The notes under the pieces: model-generated | What the model was told of the DNA's origin: nothing | Database searches by the model: none | The model's input: only the letters and a program-made list of their open reading frames with translations | Virus record (IMG/VR): IMGVR_UViG_3300032236_001858 | DNA length: 64,000 nucleotides | Strand: one strand, 5' to 3' | Source: a virus | Taxonomy: Duplodnaviria > Heunggongvirae > Uroviricota > Caudoviricetes | Shown: one piece after another, positions 6,520 to 49,422 of the stretch | Position numbering within the stretch: the first letter of the stretch is position 1 | How the letters are laid out: each line of letters starts with the position of its first letter | Translations under genes and position numbers: made by a program

Positions 6520-6567
6520 TATATTTGTAAAAAATAAGAAAAGGGACTAAACTTTTTTAATATATAC
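6520..6567 (+). promoter_or_regulatory. tandem promoter block (TAnnTTTG + AAAAGGGAC..CTTTT + TAATATATA) upstream of tRNA-fMet
   Basis: Near-identical block recurs at 30967-31016 and 46548-46598. Confidence 0.7.
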
Positions 6568-6584
6568 ACATACAATAAAAACAT

Positions 6585-7996: not shown

Positions 7997-8061
7997 CAAA
8001 AATAAAAAAAATTAAAAGGGAAGACAAAACTTTTTATATATACATTAATATAATTAAAACG

Positions 8062-8890: not shown

Positions 8891-8970
8891 GCGGGTGTCG
8901 TATAGTGGCACGTAGTAGATTATGCCGGTCTTCCAAACCGGAGATGTGAGTTCGATTCTCATCACCCGCT
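8891..8970 (+). tRNA. tRNA-Gly (TCC), enlarged D loop
   Basis: CCGGT-CT TCC AA-ACCGG. Confidence 0.85.
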
Positions 8971-9120: not shown

Positions 9121-9190
9121 GGGCCAGATGCCAACGGCAGGTCAACTCGCTTGCACCGAGATTGTTTGGGTTCGATTCCCACTGTGTCCA
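9121..9190 (+). tRNA. degenerate tRNA-Ala (TGC)
   Basis: CTCG-CT TGC AC-CGAG, G3:U70, bulged acceptor stem. Confidence 0.55.
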
Positions 9191-30966: not shown

Positions 30967-31016
30967 TAATTTTGTATAAAATAAGTCAAAAGGGACAAAA
31001 ACTTTTTAATATATAC
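30967..31016 (+). promoter_or_regulatory. tandem promoter block upstream of leader C
   Basis: TAATTTTG...AAAAGGGACAAAAACTTTTTAATATATAC. Confidence 0.7.
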
Positions 31017-31020
31017 AACA

Positions 31021-31382: not shown

Positions 31383-31454
31383 TCACTGGTAGCTCAGAGG
31401 CAGAGCAACCGCCTGTTAAGCGGTAGGTCGGGATATCGTAATTCACCCAGTGAG
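31383..31454 (+). tRNA. tRNA-Asn (GTT), weak T arm
   Basis: ACCGC-CT GTT AA-GCGGT; T loop ATCGTAA. Confidence 0.75.
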
Positions 31455-31460
31455 CAAAAC

Positions 31461-31539
31461 GCCTCAGTAGCCGAGGTCGCCTTCTAAGCGACTAATCGTA
31501 ACGGAACTGAAAATGTAGGTTCGAATCCTACCTGGGGTA
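31461..31539 (+). ncRNA. D-armless tRNA-like RNA, anticodon TCT
   Basis: GCCTCAG/CTGGGGT-A, GTCGC-CT TCT AA-GCGAC, canonical T arm, 8 nt in place of the D arm. Confidence 0.7.
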
Positions 31540-31594
31540 CAAAAAAAAGGGACACTAGTCTTATTAATATATAAGTAAAATGTAGGTTTGTATT

Positions 31595-32425
31595 ATGTTA
31601 GACTTTGAAAATATTCAAAAAGACTTTGAAAGTGGTCTTTTTTATCAAAAAGATATACTAATTAAGTATAGTATATCAATTAAAAAATTAAGAACTTTTG
31701 TAAAAAAAGGTTTATTGAATAAAGAAAATTGGAAATTAAAAAAATATGAAGTAAAAAGAGAAACAAAAAAGTTAATATCAGAAGGTAGAAAAAAATGGTT
31801 GAAAGAAAATACATCTAAACATCCTTGGAGAAATGGAAATAAATCTAAGCCTTGTGAGGAGTTTAAGAAATTCTTAAAAAGTAGGAATATTTTCTTTTTG
31901 GAAGAGGTTATGATTTCAAAAGAAAGATTCTATTCGGTTGATATTTTAATACCTGAGTTCACTTCGGTTGTAGAAATTAATGGTAATCAACATTATAAAT
32001 CTAATGGAGAACTTAAAGATTACTATAGTGAAAGAAATAGTTTTATAAAAAATAAAGGATGGTCGATATATGAAGTACACTACTCAATTGTTTATAATTT
32101 AGAAATGTGTGATTCTATTTTAGAAAATATTAAAAATAATAATAAAATCGATATACCATTTTATATAAAAAATAAGAAAGAAAAAAAATATAAGAATAGG
32201 GAAGAGTACTGGAATAAAAGAAAAATTAATAAATTGAATAGTTATAGTGAAAGATTAAATGAATTAAAAAACAGTAGTATAGATTTTAAAAAGATTGGAT
32301 GGGTTAAACTAGCATCTGAGATATTAAAAGTTAAAAATGTAAATAAACTATTAAAAGAAATCGATCCAGAATTTTATAAAAATTGTTATAAAAGAAAACA
32401 AAATGCCGAGGTGGTGGAATGGTAG
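31595..32425 (+). CDS. free-standing DUF559/Vsr-like endonuclease inserted in the tRNA array (probable homing endonuclease)
   Basis: YSVDILIPE..VVEINGNQHY; Lys-rich; stop codon lies inside the tRNA-Leu D loop. Confidence 0.75.
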   Translation: MLDFENIQKDFESGLFYQKDILIKYSISIKKLRTFVKKGLLNKENWKLKKYEVKRETKKLISEGRKKWLKENTSKHPWRNGNKSKPCEEFKKFLKSRNIFFLEEVMISKERFYSVDILIPEFTSVVEINGNQHYKSNGELKDYYSERNSFIKNKGWSIYEVHYSIVYNLEMCDSILENIKNNNKIDIPFYIKNKKEKKYKNREEYWNKRKINKLNSYSERLNELKNSSIDFKKIGWVKLASEILKVKNVNKLLKEIDPEFYKNCYKRKQNAEVVEW

Positions 32426-33427: not shown

Positions 33428-33499
33428 TTCGATATGGCCTATTGGTAGGGTGCAGGGGGACATGTTCCTGAGGACTTGGTTCGATTCCAGGTATCGATA
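33428..33499 (+). pseudogene. tRNA with aberrant 8-nt anticodon loop (Val GAC- or Met-derived)
   Basis: Intact acceptor and T arms; CAGGG-GGACATGT-TCCTG. Confidence 0.5.
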
Positions 33500-33506
33500 C
33501 AAACAT

Positions 33507-46547: not shown

Positions 46548-46598
46548 TATATTTGTATAAAATAAGAACAAAAGGAACAAAAACTTTTTAATATATAC
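46548..46598 (+). promoter_or_regulatory. tandem promoter block upstream of leader D
   Basis: TTTG(46525)..TATATTTG...AAAAGGAACAAAAACTTTTTAATATATAC. Confidence 0.72.
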
Positions 46599-46602
46599 AG
46601 AA

Positions 46603-46701
46603 ATGAAAAACTTAAACTTAAATATCGTTAACCCTCAACCGCAAGTTGTAATCGATCAGGATCCTGGTTCGAAAGGGGCTAACTATGTGGTTTTAAGTTA
46701 A
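46603..46701 (+). CDS. attenuator leader peptide D (Pro/Gln/Asp): MKNLNLNIVNPQPQVVIDQDPGSKGANYVVLS
   Basis: CCT CAA CCG CAA .. GAT CAG GAT CCT; GGCTAACT (46677-46684) pairs with AGTTAGTC of the terminator. Confidence 0.83.
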   Translation: MKNLNLNIVNPQPQVVIDQDPGSKGANYVVLS

Positions 46702-46724
46702 AGATATTATAACTATGAAACATT

Positions 46725-46757
46725 ACCCAGTTAGTCGAAAGATTAACTGGGTTTTTT
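46725..46757 (+). terminator. attenuator terminator D
   Basis: ACCCAGTTAGTC-GAAA-GATTAACTGGGT + T tract. Confidence 0.9.
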
Positions 46758-46768
46758 GTTTTAGATAC

Positions 46769-46840
46769 AGTCCGTGGGTATGTTGGTATGAATAACCTCC
46801 TGTCACGGGGAAGAAGCCGGTTCGATTCCGGTACGGACTG
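46769..46840 (+). tRNA. tRNA-Asp (GTC)
   Basis: CT GTC AC loop, G73. Confidence 0.85.
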
Positions 46841-46845
46841 CAAAA

Positions 46846-46919
46846 CGAGAAGTGACTAAGGTTTTAAGCACGCGCCGTCTGGAGCGGTGAGTTAGCAGGT
46901 TCGATTCCTGTCTTCTCGA
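46846..46919 (+). tRNA. tRNA-Pro (TGG) with C33
   Basis: CGCCG-TC TGG AG-CGGTG; C1:G72, A73. Confidence 0.72.
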
Positions 46920-46982
46920 CAACAAGTAGCTTTTGAGGCGAAAAATACTCTTTAGAGAATAGAGTAAAACAATTCTCAAAAT

Positions 46983-47055
46983 GGTCTCGTGGTTGAATGG
47001 TTACAATACCACCCTGTCACGGTGCGAGATGCCGGTTCGATTCCGGTCGAGACCG
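46983..47055 (+). tRNA. tRNA-Asp (GTC)
   Basis: CACC-CT GTC AC-GGTG, G73. Confidence 0.88.
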
Positions 47056-47060
47056 CAAAA

Positions 47061-47131
47061 GGACATATAGCTTAAAAGGAAAGAGTACCTCCAGTGGGAG
47101 GGGAGTCTTGGTTCAAGTCCAGGTATGTCCG
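47061..47131 (+). ncRNA. tRNA body with non-canonical anticodon arm
   Basis: GGACATA/TATGTCC-G and normal T arm; arm CCTCC-AGTG-GGAGG (4-nt loop) or AG TGG GA in a weaker register. Confidence 0.55.
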
Positions 47132-47137
47132 CAAAAA

Positions 47138-47209
47138 GGTCTATTAGGGTAGTGGTTATCCTTCCCGACTGTCTATCGGGAGACACCGGTTCGAATCCGG
47201 TATAGACCG
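47138..47209 (+). tRNA. tRNA-Asp (GTC)
   Basis: CCCGA-CT GTC TA-TCGGG. Confidence 0.9.
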
Positions 47210-47256
47210 CAAATGGGCTTTTCAAGACAAAAAGTTTGTAGATTACTTAATGAAAC

Positions 47257-47331
47257 GGTCTAGTGGTGAAGTGGCTATCATATCTGCCTGTCACGCAGAA
47301 GTAGAGGGATCGAAACCCTTCTAGACCGCCA
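47257..47331 (+). tRNA. tRNA-Asp (GTC)
   Basis: TCTGC-CT GTC AC-GCAGA; T loop ATCGAAA; encoded CCA. Confidence 0.88.
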
Positions 47332-47337
47332 AAAATT

Positions 47338-47412
47338 CGGGGTGTAGCGTAGTCCGGTTATCGCGCATGCTTTGGGAGCATGAAATCGTAGGTTCGAATC
47401 CTGCCACCCCGA
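47338..47412 (+). tRNA. tRNA-Pro (TGG)
   Basis: CATGC-TT TGG GA-GCATG; C1:G72. Confidence 0.92.
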
Positions 47413-47443
47413 CAAAGAAACAAAATATTAATAAATAGAAATT

Positions 47444-47497
47444 ATGAGAACAACAACACAATACCAGCAACAACAACAAATTAATCCAACGGATTGA
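47444..47497 (+). CDS. attenuator leader peptide E (Gln): MRTTTQYQQQQQINPTD
   Basis: CAA TAC CAG CAA CAA CAA CAA; GGATTGA over the stop codon pairs with TCAATCT of the terminator. Confidence 0.88.
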   Translation: MRTTTQYQQQQQINPTD

Positions 47498-47525
47498 TAA
47501 CGGTATCGTATTGTCTAAACTTTAC

Positions 47526-47559
47526 AAACCCTATTCAATCTGATTGAGTAGGGTTTTTT
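47526..47559 (+). terminator. attenuator terminator E
   Basis: AAACCCTATTCAAT-CTG-ATTGAGTAGGGTTT + T tract. Confidence 0.9.
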
Positions 47560-47561
47560 AT

Positions 47562-47632
47562 TGTCTGATGGTGTAGTGGTAGCACAAGGGTCTTTGATCC
47601 CCTTAGTTCAGGTCCGATTCCTGATCAGACAA
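47562..47632 (+). tRNA. tRNA-Gln (TTG)
   Basis: CT TTG AT loop, U1:A72. Confidence 0.85.
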
Positions 47633-47639
47633 CAAATAT

Positions 47640-47721
47640 TGAGGAATAGAATAATGGCAGTTCACCCGCCTTTGAAGCGGAGAGAGAAATCTCAGTGTAG
47701 GTTCGAGTCCTACTTCCTCAA
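47640..47721 (+). tRNA. tRNA-Gln (TTG) with long variable arm
   Basis: CCGC-CT TTG AA-GCGG; V-arm GAGA-GAAA-TCTC. Confidence 0.82.
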
Positions 47722-47727
47722 CAAAAT

Positions 47728-47799
47728 TGCTTTATAGTATATGGGTTAACATATCTGTCTTTGAAACAGATGAACTTGGTTCGAGTCCAAGTGGAGCAA
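47728..47799 (+). tRNA. tRNA-Gln (TTG)
   Basis: TCTGT-CT TTG AA-ACAGA. Confidence 0.88.
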
Positions 47800-47817
47800 C
47801 AAAAAATAATAACTACT

Positions 47818-49422
47818 ATGAATTTCATTGAAGAAAAAATAATTGAAAAAGGTAATCTTGATAAACTAACATTGAGATTTCCACCAGAACCAAATGGCTA
47901 TTTACATATTGGTCACGCTAAATCCATTATCTTAAATTTTGGTTTAGCTGAAAAATATAATAGACCTTGTAACTTGAGATTTGATGATACTAACCCAACT
48001 ACCGAAGATACTCACTTTGTTGAGTCAATTATAAAAGATATAGAATGGTTAGGTTACAAACCCGCCAATATTTTCTATACATCTGATTATTTTGATTTTC
48101 TTTATGAATGTGCTATTACTTTAATTAAAAAAGGATTAGCTTATGTTGATGATTCAACATCAGAAGAAATTGCTAACTTAAAAGGAACACCAACTTCACC
48201 TGGTAAAGATTCACCTTATAAGTCAAGAAGTGTTGATGAAAATTTAGACCTATTTAATAGAATGAGATTAGGTGAATTTGTAGAAGGTTCTAAAATTCTT
48301 AGAGCTAATATTGATATGACTTCTCCTAATATGATTTTAAGAGATCCAGTTCTTTATAGAATAATATCTAAGTCACACCACAGAACTGGTGATACTTGGA
48401 AGATTTATCCAATGTATGACTTTGCTCATCCACTTTCAGATTATAAAGAAGGTATTACCGATTCTTTATGTACTTTAGAATTTGAAGTTCACAGACCTTT
48501 ATATATGTGGGTTTTAGAAAATTGTGATTTAGAAAATCCGCTTCCAGAAGAAACTGAGTTTGCTCGTTTGAACATTGACTATACGGTTATGTCAAAGAGA
48601 AAATTAAAAAGATTAGTTGAAGAAGGATTTGTAGATGGTTGGGATGATCCAAGAATGCCAACTATTTCTGGTTTAAGAAGAAGAGGTTTTACTCCAAATG
48701 CTATTAAAGATTTTTGTGATAGAATTTCTGTTACAAGAAAAGATGGTATTGTTTCTTATTTACTTTTAGAAGAATGTTTAAGAACTGATTTGAACATAGT
48801 TACCAATAGATTAATGGGTGTTATGGATCCAGTTAAGTTAGTTATTACTAATTGGGATAGCGGAACTGAAATGGTTGAAGTTGAAAATAATCCTGGTGAT
48901 GAAAGTGCTGGTACAAGAATGATTCCTTTTAGTGGTGAACTATTTATTGAAAGAGAAGATTTCAGAGAAGAAGCTAATAATAAATTTCATAGATTGAAAT
49001 TAGGTGGTGAAGTAAGATTAAAAGGCGCTTATGTTATTATGGCTAACGAAGTTATCAAAGATGAATTTGGAGAAATCACTGAGATTAGATGTACTTACGA
49101 TCCTTTAACAAGATCAGGTATGTCTATTGAAAGAAAGATTAAAGGAACTATTCACTGGGTATCTGCTGAACACGGAGTTAGAATGAATGTAAATGAATAT
49201 GATAGATTATTTAATGATGGATCACCAGATAAAAATGAAGATGATTTTATCAATTATATCAACCCAGATTCACTTATAATTAATGATAAGGCAATCTTTG
49301 AACCTCACGTTTTAAACGTCAAGGAACCAGTTCAAATGATGAGAAAAGGGTATTATATTTTAGATACTGATGGTAAAAGTTTCAATAAAACGGTAAGTTT
49401 AAAAGAAGGTTGGGTAGGTTAA
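47818..49422 (+). CDS. glnS: glutaminyl-tRNA synthetase (534 aa)
   Basis: RFPPEPNGYLHIGHAK, RFDDTNP, YPMYDFAH, CTLEF, MSKRKL, GWDDPRMPT. Confidence 0.95.
   Translation: MNFIEEKIIEKGNLDKLTLRFPPEPNGYLHIGHAKSIILNFGLAEKYNRPCNLRFDDTNPTTEDTHFVESIIKDIEWLGYKPANIFYTSDYFDFLYECAITLIKKGLAYVDDSTSEEIANLKGTPTSPGKDSPYKSRSVDENLDLFNRMRLGEFVEGSKILRANIDMTSPNMILRDPVLYRIISKSHHRTGDTWKIYPMYDFAHPLSDYKEGITDSLCTLEFEVHRPLYMWVLENCDLENPLPEETEFARLNIDYTVMSKRKLKRLVEEGFVDGWDDPRMPTISGLRRRGFTPNAIKDFCDRISVTRKDGIVSYLLLEECLRTDLNIVTNRLMGVMDPVKLVITNWDSGTEMVEVENNPGDESAGTRMIPFSGELFIEREDFREEANNKFHRLKLGGEVRLKGAYVIMANEVIKDEFGEITEIRCTYDPLTRSGMSIERKIKGTIHWVSAEHGVRMNVNEYDRLFNDGSPDKNEDDFINYINPDSLIINDKAIFEPHVLNVKEPVQMMRKGYYILDTDGKSFNKTVSLKEGWVG

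Follow-up and report, generated by a model that had tools for sequence, protein, structure and literature searches.

Leader-peptide attenuation is, to our knowledge, textbook matter for amino acid biosynthesis operons and for a few aminoacyl-tRNA synthetase genes, but not for tRNA genes. The closest described systems are the leaders of E. coli and Salmonella (trpL, hisL, pheL, thrL, leuL and the ilv leaders), in which a short open reading frame (ORF) enriched in the regulatory codons is followed by an intrinsic terminator and a mutually exclusive antiterminator, a ribosome that does not stall blocks the antiterminator at the stop codon, and charged tRNA is the signal. Here we describe an element predicted to share these features, attenuator E (positions 47444-49422), in a stretch of 64,000 nucleotides (nt; hereafter the window) from the Caudoviricetes record IMGVR_UViG_3300032236_001858 of IMG/VR, where a Gln-rich leader and a terminator precede three tRNA-Gln genes and glnS (encoding glutaminyl-tRNA synthetase, GlnRS). 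We consider it likely (probability roughly 0.78) that unit E acts as a trp-type ribosome-mediated transcription attenuator that exerts negative feedback on the supply of Gln-tRNA(Gln). It differs from the biosynthetic leaders in its cargo, which consists of tRNA genes and a synthetase gene instead of enzymes, so that the loop would act on the sensed molecule itself, and in being viral, without a match to an Rfam leader family and without a Shine-Dalgarno sequence.

Among the other related systems, the pheM-pheST operon of E. coli is an attenuated synthetase operon, and the thrU-tyrU-glyT-thrT-tufB operon of the same organism is a mixed tRNA-mRNA operon. In that mixed operon, as in unit E, the transcript of a tRNA array continues directly into a protein gene, which is freed by tRNA processing, but there is no leader peptide or attenuator. 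The T-box riboswitches of Firmicutes also use transcription attenuation to adjust synthetase genes to the charging state of tRNA, but bind the uncharged tRNA directly and without translation, and unit E lacks T-box features. An earlier, sequence-only reading of this stretch had named pheM-pheST as a precedent for synthetase attenuation and knew of none for a combined tRNA and synthetase unit; the synthetase precedents proved to be wider, as leader peptides also precede leuS, trpS, alaS and thrS in Streptomyces (PMC8079986), while our literature search returned no paper on tRNA genes behind leader-peptide attenuators. The Streptomyces units and pheM-pheST share with unit E a synthetase gene behind a leader rich in its own amino acid, but carry no tRNA genes, whereas in unit E the tRNAs come first and glnS lies on the tRNA transcript. 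No glnS leader of this kind has been reported, and none was found at about 110 cellular glnS loci. New in unit E would thus be the combination of the classical mechanism with tRNA genes and a synthetase as cargo, a viral carrier and a closed feedback loop. E. coli pheV (tRNA-Phe), considered as a possible Phe-leader case, was rejected: NC_000913.3 shows a promoter followed by the tRNA, with no leader.

Anatomy and conservation of the proposed attenuator E

The anatomy, geometry, alternative pairings and conservation of attenuator E are shown at the level of sequence. Glutamine occupies six of seven consecutive codons of the leader, as the sequence-only reading had noted, and this is the sole window with at least 6/7 Gln in the 476-kb genome (both strands, all frames). 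From the CAA/CAG triplet frequency of 3.0% about 0.005 such windows are expected by chance, which the Gln run exceeds. Terminator scan and folding agree on a terminator hairpin (47526-47556) of 14 pairs and -16.4 kcal/mol, followed by six T residues, and this hairpin dominates the minimum-energy fold of the entire leader (z = -3 against shuffles). The antiterminator strand spans the stop codon and pairs with 47527-47542, i.e. most of the terminator 5' arm and the loop, at -12.4 kcal/mol versus -4.3 kcal/mol for shuffles (p ~0.006). The motif GGATTGA, proposed earlier as the antiterminator, is present at 47491-47497, overlaps the TGA (47495-47497) and complements TCAATCT in the terminator 5' arm; it is, however, only the core of a strand of about 17 nt instead of 7. 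The terminator is indeed followed by exactly three tRNA genes with the anticodon TTG, on which ARAGORN and Rfam agree. The T tract lies 2 nt from the first tRNA, 5-6 nt separate the tRNAs, and the glnS start lies 18 nt past the last tRNA by the Rfam end, the distance given before, or 17 nt by the ARAGORN end. As these spacers are too short for a promoter, the tRNA-Gln genes and glnS need terminator read-through and, judged from this spacing, can only be transcribed in that way.

To represent the ribosome states, the transcript was truncated before the terminator 3' arm and folded with the ribosome-covered bases masked. With the modelled ribosome on the last Gln codon the antiterminator forms. 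With the ribosome at the stop codon it is blocked and a residual structure of about -2 kcal/mol is left; under this mask none of the 12 modelled loci forms the antiterminator. The stalled-ribosome state of one of them, L001, was obtained with a corrected mask.

Related loci were gathered by their GlnRS protein from phage records, IMG/VR and metagenomes. The search for the same leader before glnS in related phages, which the sequence-only reading had suggested, yielded the Gln leader unit in 15 further phage loci (L001, L002, L003, L005-L009, L011, L012, L014, L015, L110, L112 and L114), with a GlnRS ~57-93% identical to that of the window. All 16 loci have an ATG, 4-7 in-frame Gln codons (CAA and CAG in varying proportions), a stop codon and a terminator; tRNA-Gln and/or glnS lie downstream of the leader in all of them, with glnS right behind the array in most. 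The homologous terminators range from -15.9 to -18.7 kcal/mol. The geometry is conserved as well: the antiterminator strand begins 8-12 nt past the last Gln codon in 16/16 loci, which approximates the expected front edge of a stalled ribosome, and the stop codon lies within this strand or at most 12 nt downstream. Throughout the 16 loci, pairing of the strand with the terminator 5' arm amounts to -9.6 to -16.6 kcal/mol, versus -4 to -8 kcal/mol for shuffles.

The antiterminator covaries with the terminator at the level of the helix. Twelve loci have the GAUUGA/UCAAUC pairing in common, where the variant arms UUAGUC, UUAAUC and UCAGUC keep the pairing via G-U pairs, and in the other four (L011, L014, L008 and L112) unrelated terminator sequences are each accompanied by their own matching upstream strand. 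When strands and arms were permuted over the five resulting terminator classes, the native combination (sum of -67.8 kcal/mol) ranked first, without a tie, among 120 permutations; no fully mismatched assignment did better than -46.5 kcal/mol. L005 and L007 retain GAUUGA without using it as stop codon, which places the constraint on the RNA and not on Asp-stop codons. The earlier proposal that a leader attenuator gates tRNA-Gln and glnS is in line with all of this: every prediction that it makes at the level of sequence holds, including conservation in other phages with covariation of the helix.

In four loci (L005, L007, L011 and L114) an ATATATA-type motif or a TAnnTTTG box stands just before the leader, with no upstream tRNA in the stretch shown, whereas L012 and L015 have merely an AT-rich approach. 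A terminator between a promoter and the sole genes that this promoter serves would make sense only as an attenuator.

The layout of unit E is shared by all seven tRNA operons of the genome, of which units F and G lie in the adjacent stretch. The leader ORF is followed by an antiterminator strand ~1-10 codons past the last regulatory codon, then by a terminator of the ACCC...GGGT type (in unit F GTCC...GGAC) and finally by the tRNA array. The leader codons match the downstream tRNA sets with a native score of 59 against a permutation mean of 18, the unique maximum of 5040 permutations, for tRNA sets that are incomplete in that irregular tRNA-like genes carry no assigned identity.

The poly-Gln leader is absent at the more distant phage GlnRS loci (L013, L016-L027, L113 and L115) and at L010. 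Among cellular glnS loci, a short ORF with a Gln run in the 500 nt upstream was seen at 1/69 from genomes (chance-like) and at 0/43 from metagenomes, and a host origin of the leader was rejected because these ~110 loci lack such a leader. All five leaders with a downstream tRNA-Gln(CUG) contain at least one CAG, compared to 4/7 of the others, a difference too weak to use.

Several loci show a variant arrangement. In L011 (377-961) a 149-codon ORF and glnS follow directly upon the poly-Gln leader MSQTQTHIQQLQQQFDTKG and an antiterminator that matches its terminator, with no tRNA-Gln in between, which by sequence would be a pure synthetase attenuator and is the closest parallel to pheM-pheST and the Streptomyces units. 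ORFs that by eye resemble GIY-YIG homing endonucleases lie beside or within the tRNA-Gln arrays of L010 (1264-1975) and L014 (1619-2209), and in L010 no leader is left upstream of the array.

Proposed mechanism and alternative explanations

Translation of the leader, stalling of the ribosome and the response of read-through are what we infer from this arrangement. The polymerase would arrive from the Asp/Pro tRNA unit or from a weak local promoter, with a ribosome trailing it on the leader. When Gln-tRNA(Gln) is plentiful, the ribosome would reach the UGA and cover the antiterminator strand (47489-47505), upon which the terminator (47526-47559) would form and transcription would stop 2 nt before the first tRNA. 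When Gln-tRNA(Gln) is scarce, the ribosome would stall on the CAA/CAG block at 47465-47479, with its front edge just short of 47489, leaving the strand free for the emerging 5' arm of the terminator. Once the antiterminator had formed there would be no terminator, and the polymerase would enter the tRNA-Gln genes and glnS, whose products would restore Gln-tRNA(Gln) and relieve the stall, closing a negative feedback loop. The sensed quantity in this scheme is Gln-tRNA(Gln) at the A site, and the limiting factor during infection may be the tRNA, the synthetase or glutamine.

With input (the speed at which Gln codons are decoded) and output (tRNA-Gln and GlnRS) being the same thing, unit E would represent a minimal, virus-borne homeostat for a single aminoacyl-tRNA. 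This bears on the regulation of the tRNA sets of large phages and on the reason for their synthetases: both would be supplied on demand, upon stalling at specific codons. Elsewhere in the genome the attenuators would apply the same principle to a total of 19 amino acids. At ~115 nt the elements are small, and being modular and codon-addressable they would also make attractive natural sensors of tRNA availability.

A number of observations weigh against this attenuator model. Leader E has no Shine-Dalgarno sequence upstream; Bacteroidota-type hosts usually lack one. It also lacks the AAAAGGGAC..TTTTTAATATATACA motif found before other leaders and any clear promoter of its own, and it probably relies on read-through of attenuator D and on a translation start on a tRNA precursor. 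The polymerase that transcribes unit E may not obey intrinsic terminators. The antiterminator (-12.4 kcal/mol) is weaker than the terminator (-16.4 kcal/mol), and the switch must therefore be kinetic; the antiterminator of the trp attenuator is likewise weaker than its terminator. Furthermore, the ribosome-free truncated RNA still favours the antiterminator in 7/12 loci modelled, and covariation of an outer anti-antiterminator stem, assessed by pair counting, was not above that of shuffles.

The model is at its weakest in this third, ribosome-free state. A local hairpin (47480-47498) is a candidate anti-antiterminator or pause hairpin that could hide some of the antiterminator strand as long as the RNA is free of ribosomes. 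When leader E is folded upstream of the terminator without a ribosome, 12/17 bases of the strand are paired, through the local hairpin and through GGUAU..UAUUGU pairing with the 5' part of the ORF. In comparable single-sequence folds, at least about half of the strand is paired in 15/16 loci. In an alignment (MAFFT and RNAalifold) the six pairs of the local hairpin are kept in 10/10 loci with one-sided changes only and no significant covariation, and this hairpin is all that the consensus fold of the leaders recovers.

The position of unit E directly behind tRNA-Pro with no obvious promoter, and the low complexity of the leader region (ACA/CAA repeats), would also fit a constitutively leaky terminator that damps or ends the Asp/Pro tRNA transcript with a fixed level of read-through, the ORF being an untranslated by-product of the CAA repeat. 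We regard this as unlikely, since ATG, Gln run and stop codon are in frame in 16 loci, some of which have a promoter-like motif and no upstream tRNA, and since each of five different terminators has a covarying antiterminator whose distance from the last Gln codon is constant (8-12 nt). A merely leaky terminator would also leave the six sister operons, with their different and tRNA-matched leaders, without explanation.

Synthetase genes are under T-box control in Firmicutes, and CAA is complementary to the UUG anticodon, such that the CAA tract might pair directly with uncharged tRNA-Gln and stabilise the antiterminator without translation. The conservation of start codon, frame and stop codon speaks against such direct sensing, as do the mixed codon sets of the sister leaders, which make sense only in frame, and the small size of the element (only ~115 nt, without a specifier loop or T-box-type architecture). 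Neither the T-box (RF00230) nor another Rfam family matched at E-values up to 10, and we consider this explanation very unlikely. At the gathering score Rfam returned only tRNAs, with noise at E-values up to 10; the curated leader families (His, Trp, Thr, Leu and others) gave only sub-threshold scores driven by the terminator hairpin (e.g. PyrG_leader with 20 bits versus 65). It is extremely improbable that the peptide itself is the product, either as a small Gln-rich protein or as a nascent arrest peptide that acts independently of the supply of Gln-tRNA. Some leader peptides do work in trans (peTrpL; PMC7298713), but here the conserved non-Gln residues (I-N-x-T-D) coincide with the RNA pairing segments, these segments are kept at the nucleotide level even in a different frame, and the seven sister peptides share nothing except their match to the downstream tRNAs.

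In a wider interpretation, which is rather doubtful and is put forward tentatively, the attenuator of unit E would belong to a demand sensor that spans the genome and resolves individual codons. The seven attenuators would together cover 19 amino acids, with the Gln unit nested in the Asp/Pro unit. In this way the phage would keep track of the decoding capacity of its host for each codon family, and its own tRNAs and GlnRS would come into play only when a codon family fails, e.g. upon depletion of host tRNAs or as a result of an anticodon-nuclease defence. Such a system would amount to a self-triggering counter-defence and not to simple compensation of codon usage.

Downstream genes, unit D and other tRNA operons

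The features of unit E, the upstream unit D and the seven tRNA operons are collected in the table.

Table. Position and description of the features of attenuator E and its surroundings (positions are those of the window, except for the window itself).
Feature	Position	Strand	Description
Window	224490-288489		position within the 476-kb phage genome
Unit D context	46603-47413	+	leader D, terminator D, tRNA-Asp genes and two irregular tRNA-like genes, tRNA-Pro
Leader D	46603-46701	+	MKNLNLNIVNPQPQVVIDQDPGSKGANYVVLS; Pro, Asp and three Gln codons
Terminator D	46725-46752	+	
Leader E ORF	47444-47497	+	17 codons and TGA, ATG start, predicted peptide MRTTTQYQQQQQINPTD
Regulatory codons, proposed ribosome stall site	47459-47479	+	Gln at codons 6 and 8-12 (five CAA, one CAG)
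Local hairpin (region 1:2)	47480-47498	+	AUUAAUCC/GGAUUGAU; 47480-47487 paired with 47491-47498
Antiterminator 5' strand (region 2)	47489-47505	+	spans the stop codon, pairs with 47527-47542
Intrinsic terminator	47526-47559	+	5' arm 47526-47539, loop 47540-47542, 3' arm 47543-47556, T tract 47554-47559
tRNA-Gln(UUG) 1	47562-47633	+	72 nt, canonical; Rfam 57 bits, ARAGORN agrees
tRNA-Gln(UUG) 2	47640-47722	+	83 nt, long variable arm; Rfam 55.5 bits, ARAGORN agrees
tRNA-Gln(UUG) 3	47728-47800	+	73 nt, canonical; Rfam 52.6 bits, ARAGORN agrees
glnS, glutamine--tRNA ligase	47818-49422	+	534 amino acids; TIGR00440 match; HIGH and MSK motifs
Unit A			Tyr/Glu leader, Glu/Tyr tRNAs
Unit B			Gly/Ala
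Unit C			Met/Thr/Asn/Leu/Val/Ile
Unit D			Pro/Gln/Asp leader, Asp/Pro tRNAs
Unit E			Gln
Unit F			His/Lys/Phe/Trp
Unit G			Ser/Arg

The glnS ORF encodes a genuine GlnRS. Its product scores 668 bits against TIGR00440 (cut-off 426), with model positions 3-522 of 524 aligned, and the translated gene shows the HIGH and MSK motifs (class I, KMSKS-type). The nearest cellular GlnRS proteins are ~57% identical and are mostly from Bacteroidota, and TAnnTTTG boxes, which we take to be the Bacteroidota -7 promoter element, can be read in the sequence upstream of tRNA operons. Because of these boxes and the mostly Bacteroidota affiliation of the closest cellular GlnRS, the data point to a host that belongs to the Bacteroidota. 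The window is AT-rich (30.7% G+C) and contains 37-40 tRNA genes, and the closest database relatives of the phage are the uncultured phages LR745206 (635 kb) and LR756502 (642 kb).

All three tRNA-Gln genes have U1-A72 and G2-C71. The variable arm of the second forms a long stem-loop, giving it a class II-like body, and long-arm equivalents of this tRNA-Gln were observed in seven of the related loci (L001, L002, L005, L009, L012, L015 and L110).

Unit E starts 31 nt downstream of the tRNA-Pro of unit D, and only a degenerate copy of the motif found before other leaders is present at leader E (47425-47443). From this short distance and the missing motif it follows that unit E is probably nested in the transcript of unit D, inside an operon gated by leader D; the Gln codons in leader D fit such nesting. 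The degenerate copy may nevertheless be a promoter local to leader E. The complete motif, AAAAGGGAC-N5-ACTTTTTAATATATACA, was found at 6540-6575, 8015-8045, 30988-31018 and 46570-46600, and also at 31545-31575. It ends 3-12 nt upstream of leader ATGs and stands before a tRNA-Met gene (6585) and an ORF (31595) as well. We regard it as a candidate phage promoter, in which case the leader mRNAs would be almost leaderless.

Leaders of the D type with a PQPQDQD core also occur in L001 and L009, the D-type leader of L002 has a Gln/Asp-rich core that is related to it but differs, and in L009 a tRNA-Gln lies within the D unit. Irregular tRNA-like genes were observed at 47061-47132, 33428-33500, 46846-46919, 8891-8970, 9122-9190 and 31383-31539, with odd anticodon loops (ARAGORN 'gt' and 'acat') or detection by Rfam only. 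Operon C contains an ORF of 276 codons (31595-32425) that has a promoter-like motif of its own and separates the first tRNAs from the main array, and operon F, outside the window, is interrupted by an HNH-like ORF (genome positions 219175-219717) and a HisRS-like ORF (220433-221065).

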